A program made the translations under genes and the position numbers. A stretch of 64,000 bases of DNA. Source: Candidatus Caldarchaeum subterraneum (GTDB lineage: Archaea > Thermoproteota > Nitrososphaeria_A > Caldarchaeales > Caldarchaeaceae). The notes under the pieces were generated by a model. It saw only the letters and a program-made list of their open reading frames with translations. It was not told the DNA's origin and searched no databases. Positions within the stretch are counted from its first letter, which is position 1, and each line of letters starts with the position of its first letter. The DNA is taken from positions 1,413,481 through 1,477,480 of the forward strand of contig BA000048.1 in NCBI GenBank assembly GCA_000270325.1, written 5' to 3'. Positions 7,523-29,111 of this stretch are shown one piece after another.

Positions 7523-8854
7523 ATGAACAGAAAAAGCTCAGCAGGGGTTTCATCCTCTGTAGCTGGCGCTGCTGCTGTCGTTGCATTGATTGTCGGCTTG
7601 TTGATAGGCGGCATCGGTCTCGGCCCCATACTCTCCCCTGCCCAAACCATAACACAGACAAAAACAGTGGCTACGACCGCGACTGTTACAGCTGCAGCGG
7701 GTTTAACAGGTGAGGTCACTATAGGTAGTTTGCTGTGTCTCAGCGCTGTTCTTTCCTCCTATGCTGAAAACGAGCGAGTAGCGATGGACCTTGCCGCGAG
7801 AGAAGTGAACGACTTTCTCCAACGTGCTGGTGCAGGTTTTAGAATTCGCATGATTCATGAAGACACAGCCTGCAACCCCGCAACCGCCGAGGAAAAGATT
7901 CGTAGCCTCAATGCTAGAGGCGTTAAGCTGGTAGTTGGGCCCATGACTTCGGCTGAGGTTAGGCAGATAAAGAGCTATGTGGACGCGAACAAAATCCTGA
8001 TAATCTCGCAGTCATCGACGGCTCCTGACCTCAAGATACCCAACGACTTCGTATTCAGGTTCACCACAGCAGACGATATACAAGGCCCCATAGGACCGCG
8101 GCTCGCTAAGCTACTTGGCATAACACACTTCCTATATGTCTGGAGAGGAGACGCATGGGGTGATGGCCTGCACACGGTATCCACAGGTGAGGCAAAAAAG
8201 CTCGGATTAAACCTCGTCTTCGAGCTAAGATACGCCCCTGATAAAACCGAGTTCTCAGCAGAAGTCTCCCAACTCAACGCCAAGGTCACGGAACTCCTCA
8301 ACCAAGGAGTTTCTCCAGACAAAATAATGGTGGAAATCGTCGGCTTTGACGAGGTCGTAGCATTCCTCTCAGCTGCGAACGAATATCCGAACCTCAAGCG
8401 TATAAAGTGGTTTGGAAGCGACGGAACTGCGGTGACAGCTGCCATCTTCCAAGACCCAGCCGCCACAGGTTTCGCTGAGCAGGTCAAGTGGATTAATCCA
8501 TTGTTCTTTGCAACCACACCAGACAGAAAGGCCCGTGTCGACGCCGAGGTTCTCCGCGTACTCGGCAGGTCTCCACCTGACGCCTACAGCTACGCGGCAT
8601 ACAGCGCTGTCTGGGCTTACGCCCTCGCTTTGATGGCTACACAGAAGTATGACGCTGAAGCCGTGAGAGCTGTTTTGCCCACGATTGCGGCCGATTTCCT
8701 CAGCCTCAAGCTCGACGACGCAGGCGACCTTCCATACTCCGACTACATACTCTGGGTCGTCAAAACAGTTGACGGGAAGCCGAGATGGGTTGAGGCAGGG
8801 CGCTACGTCTACGCCTCAGGCACTTTTGAGTGGGCCGAGGGCTTCACTCCATAA
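7523..8854 (+). CDS. ABC transporter substrate-binding protein (LivK/amino-acid type) with N-terminal membrane anchor and Thr-rich linker
   Basis: Periplasmic-binding-protein-like body after a TM helix and a TQTKTVATTATVTAAAG linker. Precedes two ABC ATPases. Confidence 0.75.
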   Translation: MNRKSSAGVSSSVAGAAAVVALIVGLLIGGIGLGPILSPAQTITQTKTVATTATVTAAAGLTGEVTIGSLLCLSAVLSSYAENERVAMDLAAREVNDFLQRAGAGFRIRMIHEDTACNPATAEEKIRSLNARGVKLVVGPMTSAEVRQIKSYVDANKILIISQSSTAPDLKIPNDFVFRFTTADDIQGPIGPRLAKLLGITHFLYVWRGDAWGDGLHTVSTGEAKKLGLNLVFELRYAPDKTEFSAEVSQLNAKVTELLNQGVSPDKIMVEIVGFDEVVAFLSAANEYPNLKRIKWFGSDGTAVTAAIFQDPAATGFAEQVKWINPLFFATTPDRKARVDAEVLRVLGRSPPDAYSYAAYSAVWAYALALMATQKYDAEAVRAVLPTIAADFLSLKLDDAGDLPYSDYILWVVKTVDGKPRWVEAGRYVYASGTFEWAEGFTP

Positions 8855-21582: not shown

Positions 21583-21982
21583 TATGTCGACGAGACCATC
21601 CTCTTACTGGCGTCTCCGCCCATATCTCTACAGGCTTGAGGGAAACCGTTGCACACAGTGCGGCCACTTTAACCCGCTCGCGCGAAAGATATGTAGGAAA
21701 TGTGGCTCCCGCCGCCTCGAGCGAGACAGGCTCGCCGGCCGTGGTAAACTAAGGCATTTTACTGTTGTGTATCAGCCTCAGACAGGATTTGAGAAAACGG
21801 TTCCATATGTGGTCGCTTGGGTTGAGATGTCTGACGGAACCCAGATAATAGGCCAAGTTACAGACTGTGAGCCATCGGAACTTTCCGTAGGCATGGATGT
21901 CGAAACGGTTGTGAGAAAAATACGTGTAGATGGTGAGTCTAAGCTGATAGTTTACGGAGTAAAGTTTAGGCCAGTGCTTTAA
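21560..21982 (+). CDS. DUF35 OB-fold/zinc-ribbon scaffold protein of the thiolase/HMGCS complex
   Basis: CTQCGHF...CRKCGS zinc ribbon followed by an OB fold. Overlaps the thiolase 3' end. Confidence 0.8.
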   Translation: MSWRRGCSMSTRPSSYWRLRPYLYRLEGNRCTQCGHFNPLARKICRKCGSRRLERDRLAGRGKLRHFTVVYQPQTGFEKTVPYVVAWVEMSDGTQIIGQVTDCEPSELSVGMDVETVVRKIRVDGESKLIVYGVKFRPVL

Positions 21983-22773
21983 CGGTTGGCTAGGCTTTTC
22001 CAGAGAAGAATTACAGCATACTCCCTTGGTATCGATTCTTGCTGAGCTATTTTCTCAATCTCCGCCCTAGCCACGGCCTCGGCCCGCTGTCCATGTGAGA
22101 GAATGTATTTTTTCTTGATTTCTTCGAAGAGCTTGGCCGGCTCCTCTTTGTTGGTGGTTATGTCGGCTATGTTGCGTGGGAGGTCTGAAAGCTGTTTAAC
22201 CATTTCCTCCACCATCTTTAACCTGTTGCGGAGGCTTGCGAGCTTTTTCCGCAGCTCAGGTATCTTGGCCTCCAGCTCCTCTCTGATGCCCACACCTCTG
22301 CCAGAGTCCGAGTCCTTCTCCAGCTGCATCGTGTTGAGCTCTATGCTTGACCAGATAAGCTCCTCCTCGACCTGCGCAAACTCCGACCCTAAAGCCTCTT
22401 TCGCTGCCTTCAACCTCTCCAAGACCTCTCCGCTTTTCTCCAGCAACGCGTTCCTTTTTTCGGCAAGTCTGCTCAGGATATTTCTTACCAGCTGAGGCCT
22501 TAGTTCCTCCATCTTAATGCAGTAAAGCATGAAGTTACGGTCCAAACCGCGTAAACGTTCAATTTCCCGCATAAGTTCATCATACATCTTAAGAGCCTCG
22601 TCAAGCTCGTCGCCGACCGGCTGCTGCGTCACAGCCTCCTCGACAGGCTTCACACTCTCCTCTTTGACAGTTTGTTCCTCTTGTGGTGGTGTGGGAGGAA
22701 CAACCTCTACATCTGGAGATGTCTCAGGCTTCTGCGGCGACGGCTTGATACGGAGAACAATCTTCTTCGGCAA
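21979..22773 (-). CDS. Coiled-coil protein, hypothetical (downstream of and co-oriented with the JAMM gene)
   Basis: 264 aa with a Pro/Glu-rich N-terminus and long heptad-like segments. Confidence 0.4.
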   Translation of the reverse strand: MPKKIVLRIKPSPQKPETSPDVEVVPPTPPQEEQTVKEESVKPVEEAVTQQPVGDELDEALKMYDELMREIERLRGLDRNFMLYCIKMEELRPQLVRNILSRLAEKRNALLEKSGEVLERLKAAKEALGSEFAQVEEELIWSSIELNTMQLEKDSDSGRGVGIREELEAKIPELRKKLASLRNRLKMVEEMVKQLSDLPRNIADITTNKEEPAKLFEEIKKKYILSHGQRAEAVARAEIEKIAQQESIPREYAVILLWKSLANR

Positions 22774-22804: not shown

Positions 22805-23413
22805 TTATGCTCCGAATAGCTTTTTAGCTTTTCCCAGCAGACTCTCCTGCTCTTCTGACAAAGGCTTGTCCCTCGTCTTACCAGAGGACTCGCCTAAGAT
22901 ATGCATAAAGTCAAAGGTGCTTAATGCGTGGAAAGTGCTTTCGAGAAGTTTCGCCCGATGCACTCCTATGCTCACGGGAAGGGAGACAACCCTCCCCTCT
23001 TTCGATATCTGGAAAACCTTGAACTTGAGAGAGGAGATTCTTCGTGTTTTGGCATAATCAACGGGGTCCACCACAAGGGCTACAGCCTTGCTGAACATTG
23101 CTTGGTATCGCTTCTGGGTGTCGATGTCCGTTGGCGAAAGAAAAACATCAAGCCCCGGATGCGAATGATACCATCCAACTATGTAGAGGTTTTTATCTGA
23201 TTTGGAGAGTTCTTCTGCAACCTTTGCCATAACCATCTCGTCAAGCTGCACGTAAGCAGGTGTACCGTACTGCTCACCCGTGACAGCATCCCATATCTCG
23301 AGAACCTTTCCTGCCGACTTGCCGACCAGCAAGCCCGCCACTTCACGCTGGAGGCTTGACGCAGCGTGTTTAACCACCTTCGCCAAGGCCAGCGGATAGA
23401 TTCTTACACGCAT
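22805..23413 (-). CDS. JAMM/MPN+ metalloprotease, Rpn11-like deubiquitinase
   Basis: Complete JAMM motif: upstream Glu (REVAGLLVG) and HSHPGLDVFLSPTD (HxHx7Sx2D). Confidence 0.85.
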   Translation of the reverse strand: MRVRIYPLALAKVVKHAASSLQREVAGLLVGKSAGKVLEIWDAVTGEQYGTPAYVQLDEMVMAKVAEELSKSDKNLYIVGWYHSHPGLDVFLSPTDIDTQKRYQAMFSKAVALVVDPVDYAKTRRISSLKFKVFQISKEGRVVSLPVSIGVHRAKLLESTFHALSTFDFMHILGESSGKTRDKPLSEEQESLLGKAKKLFGA

Positions 23414-23553: not shown

Positions 23554-23817
23554 ATGAAGATTAAGATTGTTCCCGCTGTCGGAGGAGGTTCACCCTTGGA
23601 GCTCGAGGTTGCTCCAAACGCCACCGTCGGCGCAGTTCGGACGAAGGTTTGCGCTATGAAGAAACTGCCACCCGACACCACCCGCCTAACCTACAAGGGT
23701 AGAGCCCTCAAAGACACCGAAACTCTTGAGAGTCTCGGCGTGGCTGATGGAGACAAATTCGTACTCATCACGCGGACGGTGGGTGGATGTGGAGAGCCAA
23801 TACGTCGAGCTGCCTGA
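23554..23817 (+). CDS. Ubiquitin homolog (pro-form: beta-grasp ending in GlyGly plus a 9-aa C-terminal extension CGEPIRRAA)
   Basis: LPPDTTRLTYKGRALKDTETLESLGVADGDKFVLITRTVGG aligns with ubiquitin [41 protein letters not shown]. The N-terminal MKIKIV strand resembles MQIFVK. Confidence 0.85.
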   Translation: MKIKIVPAVGGGSPLELEVAPNATVGAVRTKVCAMKKLPPDTTRLTYKGRALKDTETLESLGVADGDKFVLITRTVGGCGEPIRRAA

Positions 23818-24295
23818 AAACGCGTGGTACAGGCGGCTGGCTCTCGAGTATGCTTTGATTCAGGAGAATGAACCCACCTTCACACCCGTCGAAAACGACC
23901 TAACTCATTACGAGGGAGTCATAGTCGGCTCAGGCGAATATGAGGGAGGCTTTTTCAGAGTAGAAATAATCATTCCACGGTCTTACCCATATTTCCCACC
24001 CGATGTTATTTGGCACACACGGATATGGCATCCAAACTTCTCTGACAGCGTCCCCGCAAGAGTCTGTGAATCAATTTTCAAAGACCACTGGTCACCCTCT
24101 CTCCGCATAGTGGCCGTAATCGAGTCTTTGAGAAACCTTTTGACAAACCCCAACCCCGAGGACCCGCTCAACCCCGTCGCAGCATTTGAGTACAAGAACA
24201 GGCCCGACCTCTTCTACAGCCGTGTTAGGCAGTTTGTCGAAACATATGCTACGCCTGAGCAGGCTTTCGGAAAGAAGCGTTGGAAGGGTTTGTAG
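23726..24295 (+). CDS. Ubiquitin-conjugating enzyme E2 (UBC fold). Start is uncertain: ATG 23726/23747 or GTG 23783/23789; it overlaps the Ub 3' end
   Basis: UBC hallmark HPN motif with the downstream catalytic Cys (RIWHPNFSDSVPARVCESIF). The N-terminal helix is RRLALEYALIQENEP. Confidence 0.8.
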   Translation: MRVSAWLMETNSYSSRGRWVDVESQYVELPENAWYRRLALEYALIQENEPTFTPVENDLTHYEGVIVGSGEYEGGFFRVEIIIPRSYPYFPPDVIWHTRIWHPNFSDSVPARVCESIFKDHWSPSLRIVAVIESLRNLLTNPNPEDPLNPVAAFEYKNRPDLFYSRVRQFVETYATPEQAFGKKRWKGL

Positions 24296-25479
24296 TGTTG
24301 GGTGAGGTTGACGCGCTGTCGAGGTACGATCGCCAGCTACGGCTCGAGGGATGGGACCAGAACAAGCTCCTGTCGGGTAGGGTGATTGTAGCAGGTGTGG
24401 GGGCGCTTGGATGCGAGGTTGCGAAAAACCTCGCTCTTATGGGAGTTGGCGAGCTCCTCCTCATAGACAACGACTATGTCGAGCTTTCCAACCTCAGCAG
24501 ACAGATGCTCTACACCGACCAAGACATAGGAAGACCAAAAGCCTCTACGGCTGAGAAAAAAATATCCTTGATGAATCCTCTCGTGAAGGCGAAAGGCCTG
24601 CACACAGATGTCCGAAAAATCCCCGAGGAAACCTTCGCCGAGGCCGATGTCATAGTCTCAGCCGTCGACAACTGGCCGACAAGAAGATGGATGAACTCGA
24701 TGGCGGTGCATGTCGGAACTCCGCTTGTCGACGTAGCCACCGACGGCTACTATGGAAATGTTCAAACAGTGATACCCGGTGTCACCAGCTGCCTGGAATG
24801 CCATGCAGAGGCCCTTATTCCCTCGGACATACAGGCCTCGGAATGCTCTCTACGCCGCCGCACCCCAAACGACCTCGTCAAAGACCTTAGTGAACGAGGC
24901 ATATCAATAAACTTGTCCGATGCCGAGACTCTCTTCCAACACAACATCAAAACAGTCTACGACATCAAGTTCGCGCCGCAGACAGTGTTGGATCAAATGG
25001 ATAAGTCACTCAGAGAACAAGTCATCCAGCTCCGTTCACTGCTTAACCCCAAGATGCCCGCTCTACAGAGCATATCAGCAACCGTCTCAGGCCTTGCCTC
25101 GTTCGAAGTAGTCCGTTTACTTCATAAAGGTTCTCTGGGCAGGTCGTTGAACGGTATGATGGTTTTCGACGGGCTGAGGGGGAGGCTTTCGCGTATAAAG
25201 CTGGAGAGAAACGTGAACTGCCACGTATGCGGCTACAGCGAGGACAAGCCTGTGCAGATAAATGTTGCGCCTAACGAAACTATCGCCGACCTAAGAGAGA
25301 GAATATCCAACCTTCTAATGTTTCCTGACACCCGTTTACAACACGGCGCAAAACTATTGGATGACACGGCTGATATTACATCGGCAGGCATATGTGATGG
25401 AGACATACTTTATATCCATTCAAGCAGGAGAGCAACACCGGTGGCTGTGAAGGTGAAGCTGATTGAGGCTGGTGATTAG
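24280..25479 (+). CDS. Ubiquitin-activating enzyme E1-like (ThiF/MoeB/UBA family) with C-terminal ubiquitin-fold domain. Likely start is the GTG at 24295 overlapping the E2 stop (taGTG)
   Basis: YDRQLRLEGWDQNKL plus the Rossmann motif VAGVGALGCEVAKNL. A Cys-containing crossover region (CLECH...C) and a beta-grasp-like C-terminus. Confidence 0.85.
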   Translation: MEGFVVLGEVDALSRYDRQLRLEGWDQNKLLSGRVIVAGVGALGCEVAKNLALMGVGELLLIDNDYVELSNLSRQMLYTDQDIGRPKASTAEKKISLMNPLVKAKGLHTDVRKIPEETFAEADVIVSAVDNWPTRRWMNSMAVHVGTPLVDVATDGYYGNVQTVIPGVTSCLECHAEALIPSDIQASECSLRRRTPNDLVKDLSERGISINLSDAETLFQHNIKTVYDIKFAPQTVLDQMDKSLREQVIQLRSLLNPKMPALQSISATVSGLASFEVVRLLHKGSLGRSLNGMMVFDGLRGRLSRIKLERNVNCHVCGYSEDKPVQINVAPNETIADLRERISNLLMFPDTRLQHGAKLLDDTADITSAGICDGDILYIHSSRRATPVAVKVKLIEAGD

Positions 25480-25690
25480 AGAGGTCAACGCAGGGTTTTG
25501 GAACCCCTTTGAGGAGCCGAAGCCAAGGCCGAAGCAAGAGAACTGTGTAATTTGTGGCCTGGAGATGGGGAATGAAAAAACATATTCATGTCCTCACTGT
25601 GGAGCAGTTGGTCACATGTCGTGTTTCGACGACTGGCTGGTGGTGAAGCAGACGTGCCCGCTTTGCCGCAGGCCGCTGGTAGAGATGTGA
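25463..25690 (+). CDS. Small RING-type zinc-finger protein (putative E3). Likely start is the GTG at 25472 overlapping the E1 stop
   Basis: CVICx10CPHCx4Hx2Cx10CPLC, a C4HC3 cross-brace spacing, in a protein of about 72 aa. Confidence 0.8.
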   Translation: MRLVIREVNAGFWNPFEEPKPRPKQENCVICGLEMGNEKTYSCPHCGAVGHMSCFDDWLVVKQTCPLCRRPLVEM

Positions 25691-25691
25691 G

Positions 25692-26003
25692 ATGAGCGGA
25701 GAAGAAAACGAGAAAGTAATCGAGCTGGACTATTTGGAGACGCCGAAAGGAGCAGTAGCAAGGTTCGAGGGTGTCCGGCAGCTGGCTGAGGTTCTTGCAG
25801 AGGTTATCGAGGAAATTGACAAGATGAAAGAGCGGCTGCAAACACTGTCCGAAAGCAGTCAGACTCCCGAGAACCTCGAGCGCAGGCTGAAATACATAGA
25901 GGACCAGCTGATTGTGCTTAGCGACGACGTGAGAGAGATATTAAACGCCCTCGGGGAGTTGTCTGCGACGGTTGCGCAGATAAAAAAGGCTTTGAAGCTA
26001 TGA
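25692..26003 (+). CDS. Small helical/coiled-coil protein, last gene of the Ub operon
   Basis: The ATG sits 1 nt after the RING gene stop (tgagATG). 103 aa, acidic and helical. Confidence 0.4.
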   Translation: MSGEENEKVIELDYLETPKGAVARFEGVRQLAEVLAEVIEEIDKMKERLQTLSESSQTPENLERRLKYIEDQLIVLSDDVREILNALGELSATVAQIKKALKL

Positions 26004-26906
26004 TGTCAGGAAGGCTCGTCTCATCTCTGTGATTAGCTCGTTAAGTTCGGTTCGACGTCTCTCCATCTCAGCTATCTCTCTGGCCAGCGTCTCCTTGTAG
26101 GCTTCCAGCTTCTTAACCTCCTCCCTCAACTTGTTGGAAGTCTCTATCAAAGTCTCCGCTTCTGCCTTGCTTTTCTCCAGAGCTGCTAGACGCTCCTCAA
26201 GCTCCCTCTCCCTGCGTATCATCCTCTCCATCCTTATCTCCCGCAGCTTAAACAGCTTATCCATCTCTCTTCCAAAGTTTTCAAGCTTTTTCTGAGCCTC
26301 CTCAAATGATGTGAGGTAGCGTTCCGACAGGATGTTTATCTCTGTCTCGAGCGCTTCTTTCTTGGTGATAAGCTGCTTCAGCGTCTCCTGCGCCTCCGCT
26401 ATCTGCTTCTCCTTTGACTCAAGCTCCTCACGCCACTTCAGAACCTCCTCGCGAAGCCTAGACAAGCTCTCCCTCTCCTGCATAAGCCTCTGAACTTCCT
26501 TAACCAGCTCAGCACGCTGGTTCGACAAAAGGTCAGCCGTCTCATGCAAGCTCTCACTAAGCGACTTGACCTCCTCCGTTAACCCCCTATACGAGTCCAG
26601 CGCCTGGTCCAGAAGATACGCCTTCTCGACAACAGACTGCAGGGATGACAGAGTTCTCTGAGGAGATGAAACCTGCTCAAGAACCTGGCGGACATCCTCC
26701 TTGAGCTTGGCCAAGGCTTCTTCGAGCAGGCTTATTCTTTCTTCAAGCTTTTCTATGACCTGTACCCTTATGGCCGCGACCTCTTTACGGAGGTCGGCTA
26801 TGCTGTCTGACTTTCTCGGCAGCAGACCCATGGCTGAATTTGGGGTCTGCATGATTATAAACCCTACTTGGTAGTGTAAGATAGAGAATGGCCAAGTATT
26901 GTTCAA
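25998..26906 (-). CDS. Long coiled-coil protein, hypothetical
   Basis: 302 aa, essentially all heptad-rich E/K/R/L sequence. Convergent with the Ub operon. Confidence 0.4.
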   Translation of the reverse strand: MNNTWPFSILHYQVGFIIMQTPNSAMGLLPRKSDSIADLRKEVAAIRVQVIEKLEERISLLEEALAKLKEDVRQVLEQVSSPQRTLSSLQSVVEKAYLLDQALDSYRGLTEEVKSLSESLHETADLLSNQRAELVKEVQRLMQERESLSRLREEVLKWREELESKEKQIAEAQETLKQLITKKEALETEINILSERYLTSFEEAQKKLENFGREMDKLFKLREIRMERMIRRERELEERLAALEKSKAEAETLIETSNKLREEVKKLEAYKETLAREIAEMERRRTELNELITEMRRAFLTS

Positions 26907-27651
26907 AGGTTTTCGTGGGGCATGTTTTTATAAGGTGGGGCATCTGGGTTTAATCGGCATGGTTGTGTCTGAGAGACGGTTGCTCGTTCGGTTTTTTCAG
27001 ATAGGCTCGGTGCTGGCTTTGGCGGGCAGCATACATGTGCTGACCCTTCTCCTTCCATGGTACACTGTAAGGGCTGACAGCGTTTCAACCTCTGTTTTGA
27101 GCGGCTACCTGCTACCCGAGACACTGGCCCTCTCAGTGGCCGGAGGAGTTTTGGCGGGTCTGTCTTTGTTGGTGACATCCTTTAGCCAGCGTCCCATGGC
27201 GGTGAGAACCGTGCTAGTTGTCTTATCGCTTTTAGGAGGGGTGCTAGCCATGGTTTCTCCGCTCTATCTCGGGCTTGTCAGGGTTCCGGCTCTAAGCGTG
27301 GCTGGCGAGCCGGGCATAGGGTTCTTCATAGCACTTTTCTCCGCCATAGTTATTCTTGCGTTAGGAGGAGTGGCTCTTATGACACGGCCGCGTGTGGTCG
27401 AGATTCCATATCAAGGCTATGGTGGCGTGAGCGGGGCTACAGTGTCGTCCACACAGCCGATGGAGACAACCTCTTTTGAAGTTGCCGGTGAGGTTGAGGA
27501 GGGAGTAGTCTGCCCCATTTGCTACACATCCGTGGAAGCTGAAAATGCTGTTAGATGCTCCTCATGCGGTGTAGTTTTTCACTCTGGATGCCTTGACGCA
27601 TATGTAAACATAAACGGTACTTGCCCAAACTGTGGAAGAGCCGTTGTCTAG
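26899..27651 (+). CDS. Polytopic membrane protein with C-terminal cytosolic C4HC3 RING/PHD-like zinc finger
   Basis: Four to five hydrophobic helices, then CPICx11CSSCx4Hx2Cx9CPNC. The spacing is the same as in the small RING protein at 25463. Confidence 0.6.
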   Translation: MFKGFRGACFYKVGHLGLIGMVVSERRLLVRFFQIGSVLALAGSIHVLTLLLPWYTVRADSVSTSVLSGYLLPETLALSVAGGVLAGLSLLVTSFSQRPMAVRTVLVVLSLLGGVLAMVSPLYLGLVRVPALSVAGEPGIGFFIALFSAIVILALGGVALMTRPRVVEIPYQGYGGVSGATVSSTQPMETTSFEVAGEVEEGVVCPICYTSVEAENAVRCSSCGVVFHSGCLDAYVNINGTCPNCGRAVV

Positions 27652-27662
27652 CGTGAGTCTGC

Positions 27663-29111
27663 ATGGGCCTCGAGGAAATCGTTAAACTCGGTCTTGAGCG
27701 GGGGTTTTTCTTTCCGTCGGCGGAGATTTACGCCGGGTCTCCGGCGGGCTTCTGGGAATATGGGCACCTAGGAGCACTGCTCAAACGCAAGTTCATAGAC
27801 GCGTGGCATCGCCTAATGGTGCGAAGAGATGAGATGCTTCTCGTCGATGGTTCGCAGATTCTTCCCAAACCCGTTTTCGTCGCATCTGGTCATCTAGCCA
27901 CATTCGCAGACCCCATAACACGCTGTAAATCATGCAAGTCCGTTTATCGAATAGATAGGCTGCTGGAGGAGAAGCTGGGCATAAAGGTTCCGGAAAGGAC
28001 TCCACCCGAGCAGATTGACGAGATTATTGCTGAGCATGGTTTCCGTTGCCCTGCATGCGGGGGAGAACTGGACAAAGTCTCCCTGTTCAACATGATGTTC
28101 GGTGTTTCTCTGGGGGCGTCGGGCGATGAGGGATATCTCAGGCCCGAGACGTGTCAAAACATCTTCATAGATTTTCCACGTGTTTACAAGATTTCGCGGA
28201 GAAAGCTGCCGCTCGCGCTCGCACAGGTGGGGAAAAGCTTCCGTAACGAGATATCACCTCGCCAATCACTTATCAGGCTCCGGGAGTTTACACAGGCAGA
28301 GATAGAGGTTTTCTTCAACCCACGCACAGCCAACGAATTTGCGAAGGCCAAGACAGTTGCTGACAAAGAGTTAAACATGTGGGTTGGAGAGAGGGTTGAA
28401 AAAATCACATGCGAAAGAGCTGTTGAGAGTGGTCTGGTTTCGAGTTGGCTCGTCGCATATTATCTCTGGCTTGTGCAGGACTTCTATTTCCGCTTAGGCA
28501 TAGGCTCGGACAGGCTTAGGTTCAGGAGGCTCGGTGATGATGAGAAGGCTTTCTACGCCGCCGAGGCCTGGGATTTAGAGGTGCTTACCTCGACTGGGTG
28601 GGTGGAGCTTGTTGCATGTAACAACCGAACCGACTATGACCTCGGTGGGCATCAGAGGGTTAGCGGAGTCGACCTACGGGTAACGGAGGATGGGGAGAGC
28701 TTTCTGCCGCATGTTTTCGAGCTTTCGATGGGTGTTGACAGAAGCCTTCTCGCTCTTCTTGAGCACGGCTACGTCCAAGAAAATGGTAGGAGTGTTCTCC
28801 GTCTTCATCCAGCCCTCGCCCCATACACAATCGCGGTCTTCCCTCTGCTTGACAGGCCTGAGCTGACTCAGGTGGCCCAACAGCTCTACAACAAGCTGCA
28901 GCTGGATTTCGACACTTTCTATGACGAGAAGGGAAGCATAGGCAGAAGATACAGGAGACAGGATGAGATAGGCACACCCTTCTGCATAACAGTAGATTAT
29001 CAAACCTTGGAGGATAACACGGTGACCGTGCGTGACCGAGACACCATGAAACAGGAGCGGGTGAACATCGAAGTGCTCAAGAGCTACATATCGGATAAGC
29101 TCGTGATATAG
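27663..29111 (+). CDS. glyS: Glycine--tRNA ligase (archaeal/eukaryotic alpha2 type)
   Basis: N-terminus RGFFFPSAEIYAGSPAGFWEYGHLGALLKRKFIDAW and class II aaRS motifs. 482 aa. Confidence 0.85.
   Translation: MGLEEIVKLGLERGFFFPSAEIYAGSPAGFWEYGHLGALLKRKFIDAWHRLMVRRDEMLLVDGSQILPKPVFVASGHLATFADPITRCKSCKSVYRIDRLLEEKLGIKVPERTPPEQIDEIIAEHGFRCPACGGELDKVSLFNMMFGVSLGASGDEGYLRPETCQNIFIDFPRVYKISRRKLPLALAQVGKSFRNEISPRQSLIRLREFTQAEIEVFFNPRTANEFAKAKTVADKELNMWVGERVEKITCERAVESGLVSSWLVAYYLWLVQDFYFRLGIGSDRLRFRRLGDDEKAFYAAEAWDLEVLTSTGWVELVACNNRTDYDLGGHQRVSGVDLRVTEDGESFLPHVFELSMGVDRSLLALLEHGYVQENGRSVLRLHPALAPYTIAVFPLLDRPELTQVAQQLYNKLQLDFDTFYDEKGSIGRRYRRQDEIGTPFCITVDYQTLEDNTVTVRDRDTMKQERVNIEVLKSYISDKLVI

Follow-up and report, generated by a model that had tools for sequence, protein, structure and literature searches.

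A candidate membrane-anchored RING ubiquitin ligase with an unclassified membrane domain beside the ubiquitin gene cluster of Candidatus Caldarchaeum subterraneum

Among minimal ubiquitylation systems of the eukaryote-like kind, the one studied best is the ubiquitin (Ub) operon of Candidatus Caldiarchaeum subterraneum. The only RING protein of this system described by Nunoura et al. (2011), who also published its motif, is srfp (CSUB_C1477), a Ub ligase (E3). A second or a membrane RING is not mentioned by Hennell James et al. (2017), while Fuchs et al. (2018) note next to the operon "a second E3 protein", in a text from which the words membrane and transmembrane are absent; several zf-RING_2 proteins were counted in Aigarchaeota by Grau-Bove et al., with their architecture left undiscussed. 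Literature searches with the locus tags, and others for transmembrane RINGs of archaea, yielded no additional mention. Here, a stretch of 64,000 nucleotides (nt) from Candidatus Caldarchaeum subterraneum (contig BA000048.1, positions 1,413,481 to 1,477,480 of the forward strand; hereafter the window) was analysed, which holds this known eukaryote-like gene cluster, including a protein of 75 amino acids (aa) carrying the srfp motif published by Nunoura et al. Next to the cluster, an open reading frame (ORF) on the plus strand, nt 26899-27651, encodes a predicted polytopic membrane protein ending in a zinc finger, here called the membrane RING protein. A reading made beforehand from the sequence alone (the sequence-only reading) had regarded it as not characterised; this stands as far as experiments are concerned, but a candidate second E3 was already known from Fuchs et al. 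Its membrane anchor, its conservation and the four-gene unit to which it belongs appear to be undescribed in the searchable literature.

With a probability of roughly 60%, we read this protein as a RING E3 tethered to the membrane, or as the subunit by which such an E3 docks the conjugating enzyme (E2), which would work with the Caldarchaeal Ub system at the cytoplasmic face of the membrane. Computation shows a RING sequence family, a RING-like model fold, four helices as predicted, and residues and a gene order that are conserved; topology, E2 binding, ligase activity, substrates and any complex with srfp or coiled-coil proteins are inferred.

The zinc finger belongs to the RING family both by sequence and by predicted fold. 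Its eight ligands (C185, C188, C200, C203, H208, C211, C222 and C225) are spaced C-x2-C-x11-C-x2-C-x4-H-x2-C-x10-C-x2-C, in the window CPICx11CSSCx4Hx2Cx10CPNC, and are invariant in a divergent alignment as well as in about 50 distinct homologues of 30-94% identity. Pfam zf-RING_2 (PF13639) matches residues 205-245 of the 250-aa ORF with 38.1 bits, above its cut-off of 27.3 (E 1.9e-9), and is present in all homologues. The closest sequence matches in the PDB are RING-H2 E3s, namely the active ligases EL5 (E 5e-7), RLIM, RNF38, RNF4, Arkadia and gp78, as well as RNF13 and synoviolin. An AlphaFold2 model of the RING alone reached a predicted local distance difference test (pLDDT) score of 90, and its top 50 PDB matches in Foldseek were all RING E3 domains (TM-score 0.65-0.76, root-mean-square deviation 1.4-3 A), many of them solved with E2 bound; neither a PHD finger nor a zinc ribbon occurred among these 50. 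Prok-RING_1 (PF14446, cut-off 29.1) scored 13.3 bits with the window protein and 23.4 with srfp, zf-RING_2 being the better match for both; the other Pfam families that matched the window protein likewise fell short of their cut-offs, and in NCBIfam only a sub-threshold, rubrerythrin-like match (E 0.03) was obtained. A zinc ribbon, rubredoxin or DUF1610 reading was rejected on these Pfam, NCBIfam and Foldseek results. A zinc ribbon or rubredoxin lacking an E2-binding surface is thus not what was found: a RING fold was modelled, and the Ile, Trp/Tyr and Pro positions of E2 contact are kept.

The His that serves as ligand 4 in RING-H2 fingers (C3+2) is Val in the membrane RING protein, a Cys three residues before ligand 3 substituting for it (CSSC-GVVF-H); the ligand order is therefore C4HC3 and not that of the canonical RING-H2 (C3H2C3). 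C4HC3 is the usual order of prokaryotic RINGs according to a recent review, and the same shift of ligand 4 was noted in srfp by Hennell James et al. A RING with the same C-x2-C-x4-H arrangement was also met in a 243-aa Asgard protein (P0097; Freyarchaeota/Sigynarchaeota) named "M48 family metalloprotease", and the variant is therefore not confined to Caldarchaeales.

The ORF was confirmed in the window, and it represents a gene under purifying selection, given that third codon positions hold 65 of the 82 and 105 of the 152 substitutions that separate it from two close relatives. Its true start is almost certainly the ATG at nt 26959, leading to a protein of 230 aa, rather than the TTG at nt 26899, since most homologues begin at the equivalent Met and since the 20 additional codons of the TTG-extended frame, which are not conserved, contain a TATA-like box, TTTTTATAA. 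A comparable T/A-rich box at similar spacing was present in all lineages examined (Caldarchaeum, Wolframiiraptor-type and distant-clade loci), and the box is probably the gene's own archaeal promoter, with a short or absent mRNA leader. A start at TTG 26899 with a fifth helix was rejected, the extension being unconserved and overlapping the TATA box, as was a Tat signal at the "SERRLL" N-terminus, the Arg pair of which is unconserved outside the genus.

Four hydrophobic segments were identified in the protein on the Kyte-Doolittle scale, and four long helices of high confidence in the full-length AlphaFold2 model, computed with 19 homologues (mean pLDDT 81.5); of the four or five helices suggested by the sequence-only reading, four are therefore retained and the fifth is not. 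The model further contains short strands in two outer loops, a linker with a disordered core and a folded C-terminal domain, the linker being acidic in most family members and variable in length across the family. Lys and Arg are enriched at the N-terminus, in loop 2 and in the segment following helix 4, while loops 1 and 3 contain fewer of these residues or are acidic; by the positive-inside rule, both termini, and hence the RING, would be cytoplasmic, as had been proposed for the finger. The membrane domain is conserved as strongly as the RING, with R11, H26, W34, G49, Y50, S59, G67, S100, Y103 and G121 invariant across clades. No sequence relatives of it were found in Pfam or among PDB sequences, and its four predicted helices would form a compact domain of a previously unclassified family.

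The residues of srfp that matter for ubiquitylation are known from mutants, I30Q abolishing the reaction and W58A and R69A reducing it (Hennell James et al.); the I30, W58 and R69 positions of the window srfp match this numbering exactly. Among 50 distinct membrane-RING domains, on which all the following counts are based, the position of srfp I30 (C1+2) is occupied by Ile in 49, that of W58 (C6+4) by Trp (36 domains) or Tyr (12 domains), and the one following Cys7 (C7+1) by Pro in every case, the window protein having Ile, Tyr and Pro, respectively. Judged from these residues, the E2-docking surface of the membrane RING looks intact. The linchpin position, that of srfp R69 (C8+1), is Gly in 25, Lys in 19, Gln in three and Asn in three domains; in the window it is Gly246 (250-aa ORF), followed by Arg. 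Because the window protein lacks the linchpin, the element priming E2~Ub, the membrane RING may be a weak ligase when alone, or one that depends on a partner.

As to its origin, the sequence-only reading had taken the finger for a paralogue of the small RING about 1.2 kb upstream. The distance from srfp is 1.27 kb, and the zinc-ligand order, the spacing and the shift of ligand 4 are identical in the two proteins, so that the identity of spacing held exactly, whereas the residue counts given for two of the loops had to be corrected. The two RING domains are 37% identical over 46 ungapped residues, with nine of 38 non-ligand positions in common. On the other side, the C4HC3 order is no proof of paralogy, and the scores of membrane RINGs with a srfp hidden Markov model (41-53 bits) overlap those of generic RINGs (best unrelated 45 bits), in a comparison set biased by its pre-selection with the membrane-RING profile. 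Within Caldarchaeales, two RINGs and no more were counted in each locus that includes upstream sequence, a soluble one and another having four or five Kyte-Doolittle-scored hydrophobic segments, and srfp and membrane RINGs form two separate orthologous groups across the order; any duplication would therefore predate the Caldarchaeales radiation. From the common spacing, the shifted ligand and the adjacency, paralogy is plausible. No further RING-like ORF was found by a motif scan of the 64-kb window; an extra motif match in a 68-aa ORF (nt 7573-7695) was regarded as chance.

A profile search over 1.84 billion representatives gave 870 matches in all, of which only about 13 clusters extend over the membrane domain as well as the RING, the remainder matching little beyond the RING. 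The family comprises about 50 distinct sequences and is restricted to Caldarchaeales and one more distant clade of Nitrososphaerota. The close relatives all belong to Ca. Caldarchaeum and are labelled "RING finger protein" or "RING-H2 finger protein" at NCBI; a metagenome-assembled genome (MAG) of Ca. Caldarchaeum subterraneum shows 92-99% protein identity across the block, and a 2.8-kb contig (CAZQJI010000119.1) is 100% identical from E1 through the membrane RING. The assignment of this contig to a MAG named "uncultured Bacteroidota bacterium" almost certainly results from faulty binning.

Scanning the species genomes of GTDB retrieved 33 loci (Caldarchaeum, HR01, Pelearchaeum, Terraquivivens, Wolframiiraptor and unnamed Nitrososphaeria), onto which, together with five further loci, the window proteins were mapped. 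All 27 Caldarchaeales loci that include upstream sequence have the order cc264-JAB, Ub-E2-E1-srfp-cc103, cc302, membrane RING-GlyRS, where E1 is the activating enzyme and GlyRS the glycyl-tRNA synthetase, with cc103 undetected at E <= 1e-4 in three of them; the proximity of the membrane RING to the Ub operon, and its conservation, are thus borne out. The block persists even where membrane RING identity falls to 32-39%, where the thiolase cluster is found on the opposite side and where nuo genes are missing, and its conservation goes beyond general synteny. In the distant clade (L039-L041; GlyRS 44-46% identical), srfp-cc, a cc gene and membrane RING-GlyRS are retained, so that the unit of srfp-cc103 on the plus strand, cc302 on the minus strand and membrane RING on the plus strand extends over nt 25463-27651 in the window, 8456-10774 in L039 and 8472-10747 in L040. 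In a third clade (L042-L044), the order is cc-JAB, Ub-E2-E1-srfp-cc and cc, followed by an AT-rich non-coding gap. Because of the patterns in these two clades, the membrane RING, srfp and the two coiled-coil genes appear as the most tightly associated genes, the link with Ub-E2-E1 being strong within Caldarchaeales but not universal. The third clade is an AT-rich lineage of Nitrososphaerota (29% GC; L042, 11719-13629, also L043 and L044), in which the gap measures 489 bp and is followed by a malic enzyme gene, with no GlyRS adjoining.

Several observations weigh against a membrane-tethered E3 of the Ub system. The equivalent of W58 is Tyr throughout the genus Caldarchaeum, and the cation of the linchpin is absent from the window protein and from 31 of the 50 family members (Gly, Gln or Asn). 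The Foldseek E-values of the RING model are weak (best 4e-3), as expected for a domain of 54 residues. As for the neighbourhood, the gene lies outside the Ub-E2-E1-srfp string with a promoter apparently of its own, and its linkage with GlyRS is as tight as that with the Ub genes; Ub, E2, E1 and JAB were not found within 10 kb in L039-L041 (a search for E2 homologues gave 25 close relatives, none of them on these contigs), and no membrane RING adjoins the operon in L042-L044.

Part of these data would be accommodated if the protein were a non-catalytic RING, that is, a membrane receptor or heterodimer partner which brings srfp and/or the coiled-coil proteins, with E2~Ub, to the membrane and has little ligase activity alone, by analogy with BARD1 or BMI1, which support an active partner RING. 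Indeed, the missing linchpin of the window protein and of most of the family is set against an Arg or Lys at this position in 24 of 26 srfp sequences, and the unit of srfp, cc103, cc302 and membrane RING is intact also where Ub-E2-E1 is not adjacent. In the distant clade, moreover, srfp (L039, 8456-8656; L040, 8472-8678) carries Ala in place of I30 and Leu in place of W58 and keeps a Lys/Arg linchpin, while the membrane RING (L039 and L040, from 10001) keeps Ile and Trp and has Gly at the linchpin, complementary features that would fit a heterodimer. Nevertheless, the E2-contact positions of the membrane RING itself still hold Ile, Trp/Tyr and Pro, 19 of the 50 members have Lys at the linchpin, and L042-L044 possess srfp and both coiled-coil genes without a membrane RING; we hold a purely supporting role, the main rival reading, to be somewhat unlikely.

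That the protein is a zinc-finger membrane protein unrelated to ubiquitin, its proximity to the operon being inherited synteny maybe tied to GlyRS, appears doubtful. In nearly all loci, and likewise in the distant clade, GlyRS adjoins on the same strand, the promoter seems to be the gene's own, Ub-E2-E1 is not adjacent in L039-L041, and a close homologue goes in one source under the name "Zn-ribbon protein involved in translation (DUF1610)". However, the finger is a RING, not a zinc ribbon, by Pfam cut-off and by fold, the rubrerythrin-like NCBIfam match remains below threshold, the E2-contact residues are conserved, and the link with a second RING, srfp, persists in both clades. Homology with the eukaryotic MARCH/RING-CH ligases or with PHD fingers, a likeness to which had been suggested by the sequence-only reading, is very improbable: the C4HC3 order and a weak match to PHD (PF00628; 20.1 bits, cut-off 24, first 33 profile positions only) speak for it, but RINGv (PF12906) was absent among the 15 Pfam families reported at E <= 0.1, the C-x2-C-x4-H spacing differs from the C-x-C-x7-H of RING-CH fingers, the nearest sequences and the top 50 structural matches are RING E3s with no PHD among the latter, and C4HC3 is a general arrangement of prokaryotic RINGs.

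If the membrane RING protein is indeed a membrane-tethered E3, its flexible, mostly acidic linker would hold a cross-brace RING at the inner face of the membrane, where it would dock the operon's E2~Ub via three residues, namely the Ile that follows Cys1, the Trp/Tyr of the central helix and the Pro that follows Cys7. Ub transfer would thereby be promoted to lysines of membrane or membrane-proximal proteins, which the membrane domain would select, and srfp and the two conserved coiled-coil proteins might act jointly with the membrane RING. A more specific, and in our view rather unlikely, proposal is that srfp, cc103, cc302 and the membrane RING are one heteromeric four-gene E3 module assembled at the membrane: E2 would dock onto the membrane RING, the linchpin would come from srfp and the tetraspan-like domain would select membrane-protein substrates; if true, this module would be an archaeal forerunner of membrane-protein ubiquitylation of the type of endoplasmic-reticulum-associated degradation (ERAD) or of the endocytic type, predating eukaryotes. 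Even apart from this, and depending on activity, the order-wide presence of a second, membrane-tethered RING suggests that membrane targeting of ubiquitin is an old, built-in feature and not a eukaryotic addition. It would also offer a handle on native substrates, to be sought among proteins near the membrane domain or among the conserved coiled-coil neighbours.

The coordinates of the genes and protein segments considered are collected in Table 1.

Table 1. Genes, promoter element and protein segments of the ubiquitin block in the window (residues numbered on the 230-aa protein).
Feature	Position (nt)	Strand	Remarks
Coiled-coil protein gene	21979-22773	-	beside Ub operon
JAB/JAMM deubiquitinase gene, Rpn11-like	22805-23413	-	window ORF
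Ub gene	23554-23817	+	within Ub-E2-E1 stretch 23554-25479
E2 gene (UQ_con), ORF	23726-24295	+	overlaps Ub gene
E1 gene (ThiF)	24280-25479	+	
srfp, soluble small RING protein, 75 aa	25463-25690	+	demonstrated E3 in C. subterraneum
cc103, 103-aa coiled-coil protein	25692-26003	+	closes Ub-E2-E1-srfp string; always together with srfp
cc302, coiled-coil protein	25998-26906	-	divergent from membrane RING gene
TATA-like box TTTTTATAA	26925-26933	+	25 nt 5' of ATG 26959
Membrane RING gene, 230 aa plus stop	26959-27651	+	listed TTG ORF begins at 26899
Membrane helix 1, residues 5-31	26971-27051	+	invariant His26; ends in conserved LLPWY motif
Membrane helix 2, residues 53-74	27115-27180	+	
Membrane helix 3, residues 79-112	27193-27294	+	conserved S100-P101-x-Y103 motif
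Membrane helix 4, residues 120-141	27316-27381	+	
Linker, helix 4 to RING	27382-27510	+	core residues 150-167 with pLDDT < 50
RING finger, Cys185 to Cys225	27511-27633	+	zf-RING_2 match
Glycyl-tRNA synthetase (GlyRS) gene	27663-29111	+	11 nt 3' of membrane RING gene

Some features of the neighbouring genes were recorded alongside. The GlyRS and membrane RING genes are possibly co-transcribed, being on the same strand and 11 nt apart. The true start of cc302 is probably ATG 26831, its homologues being called at about 277 aa. The three coiled-coil proteins that flank or close the Ub operon (21979-22773, minus; 25692-26003, plus; 25998-26906, minus) are kept throughout the order; no mutual relationship among them was detectable, and only generic coiled-coil families were matched, without a family assignment. 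They could be native Ub substrates or adaptors, since Hennell James et al. observed in vitro that the Rad50 coiled coil became modified with Ub.

Within the operon, the C-terminal part of E1 (window about 25250-25410) is ubiquitin-like: Ub aligns there at 33-37% identity in several loci, and E1 residues 325-381 give weak matches to Pfam ubiquitin. Ub and E2 were called as one fused ORF (ubiquitin plus UQ_con) in two sources (locus L005, 6519-7322, and protein P0203), which could be a real fusion or an artefact of gene calling. The N-terminus of srfp (window 25463-25540; also L039, L040 and L042) has a conserved aromatic motif before the RING (GFWNPF, GFWDW, RWDW or MWDW), which may be a partner- or substrate-binding element. 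In Terraquivivens (L028, 5359-6803, and L025), an insert of 0.9-2 kb separates E2 and E1 and holds an opposite-strand polytopic membrane gene, transporter-like and apparently split into two ORFs. A Vps4/CdvC-type gene (MIT, AAA and Vps4_C; L004, 571-1680) lies about 4 kb upstream of JAB in L004, the most divergent Caldarchaeum-like genome, and is not at that position in the window.

Among the closest systems known so far is srfp, sharing with the membrane RING protein the ligand spacing, the ligand-4 shift, the E2-contact Ile and Pro and the gene block. However, srfp is a soluble protein of 75 aa with Trp58 and an Arg69 linchpin, whereas the membrane RING protein adds a four-helix domain of 150 aa and has Tyr for Trp and Gly at the linchpin. 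Prok-RING_1 (PF14446) is a family of RINGs from prokaryotes that is associated with Ub/E1/E2/JAB neighbourhoods and reportedly includes membrane-bound bacterial versions; relatives from the distant clade carry precomputed matches to it, but the window protein scores below its cut-off. In the bundle of four helices and the short beta strands of the outer loops, the model of the membrane domain recalls the tetraspans of the claudin/PMP22/TARP type, and Foldseek pairs it weakly with claudins and TARP/stargazin at E 5e-3 and a TM-score, normalised to the target, of 0.52-0.57; there was no match reaching E 0.001 and no support from sequence or Pfam, and the similarity may be a generic four-helix likeness.

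Among eukaryotic ligases, those of the MARCH/RING-CH type have in common with the archaeal protein the C4HC3 order and the combination of membrane helices with a cytosolic finger. Beside the lack of a RINGv match and the spacing of ligands 3, 4 and 5 already described, the order of the domains differs, the RING of MARCH proteins being N-terminal to the helices and that of the archaeal protein C-terminal to them. The membrane RING-H2 ligases (EL5/ATL, RNF13, gp78/AMFR, Hrd1/synoviolin) come nearer, with membrane helices followed by a cytosolic RING, and in the case of EL5 with a fold similarity (TM-score 0.71) in addition to the sequence match given above. The GLD motif, which presumably marks ATL proteins, is absent from the membrane RING protein. 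The archaeal protein differs from these ligases also in its membrane domain, for which no sequence relative was detectable in Pfam or the PDB, in its ligand 4, which is the Cys before ligand 3 and not the His at C3+2, and in its host, an archaeon with a single E2. In eukaryotes, Hrd1, gp78, ATL and MARCH serve the quality control and trafficking of membrane proteins; to these membrane RING ligases the protein described here, if active, would add an archaeal example, being most likely, as far as sequence and models indicate, a membrane-anchored RING ligase with a membrane domain of an unclassified family.

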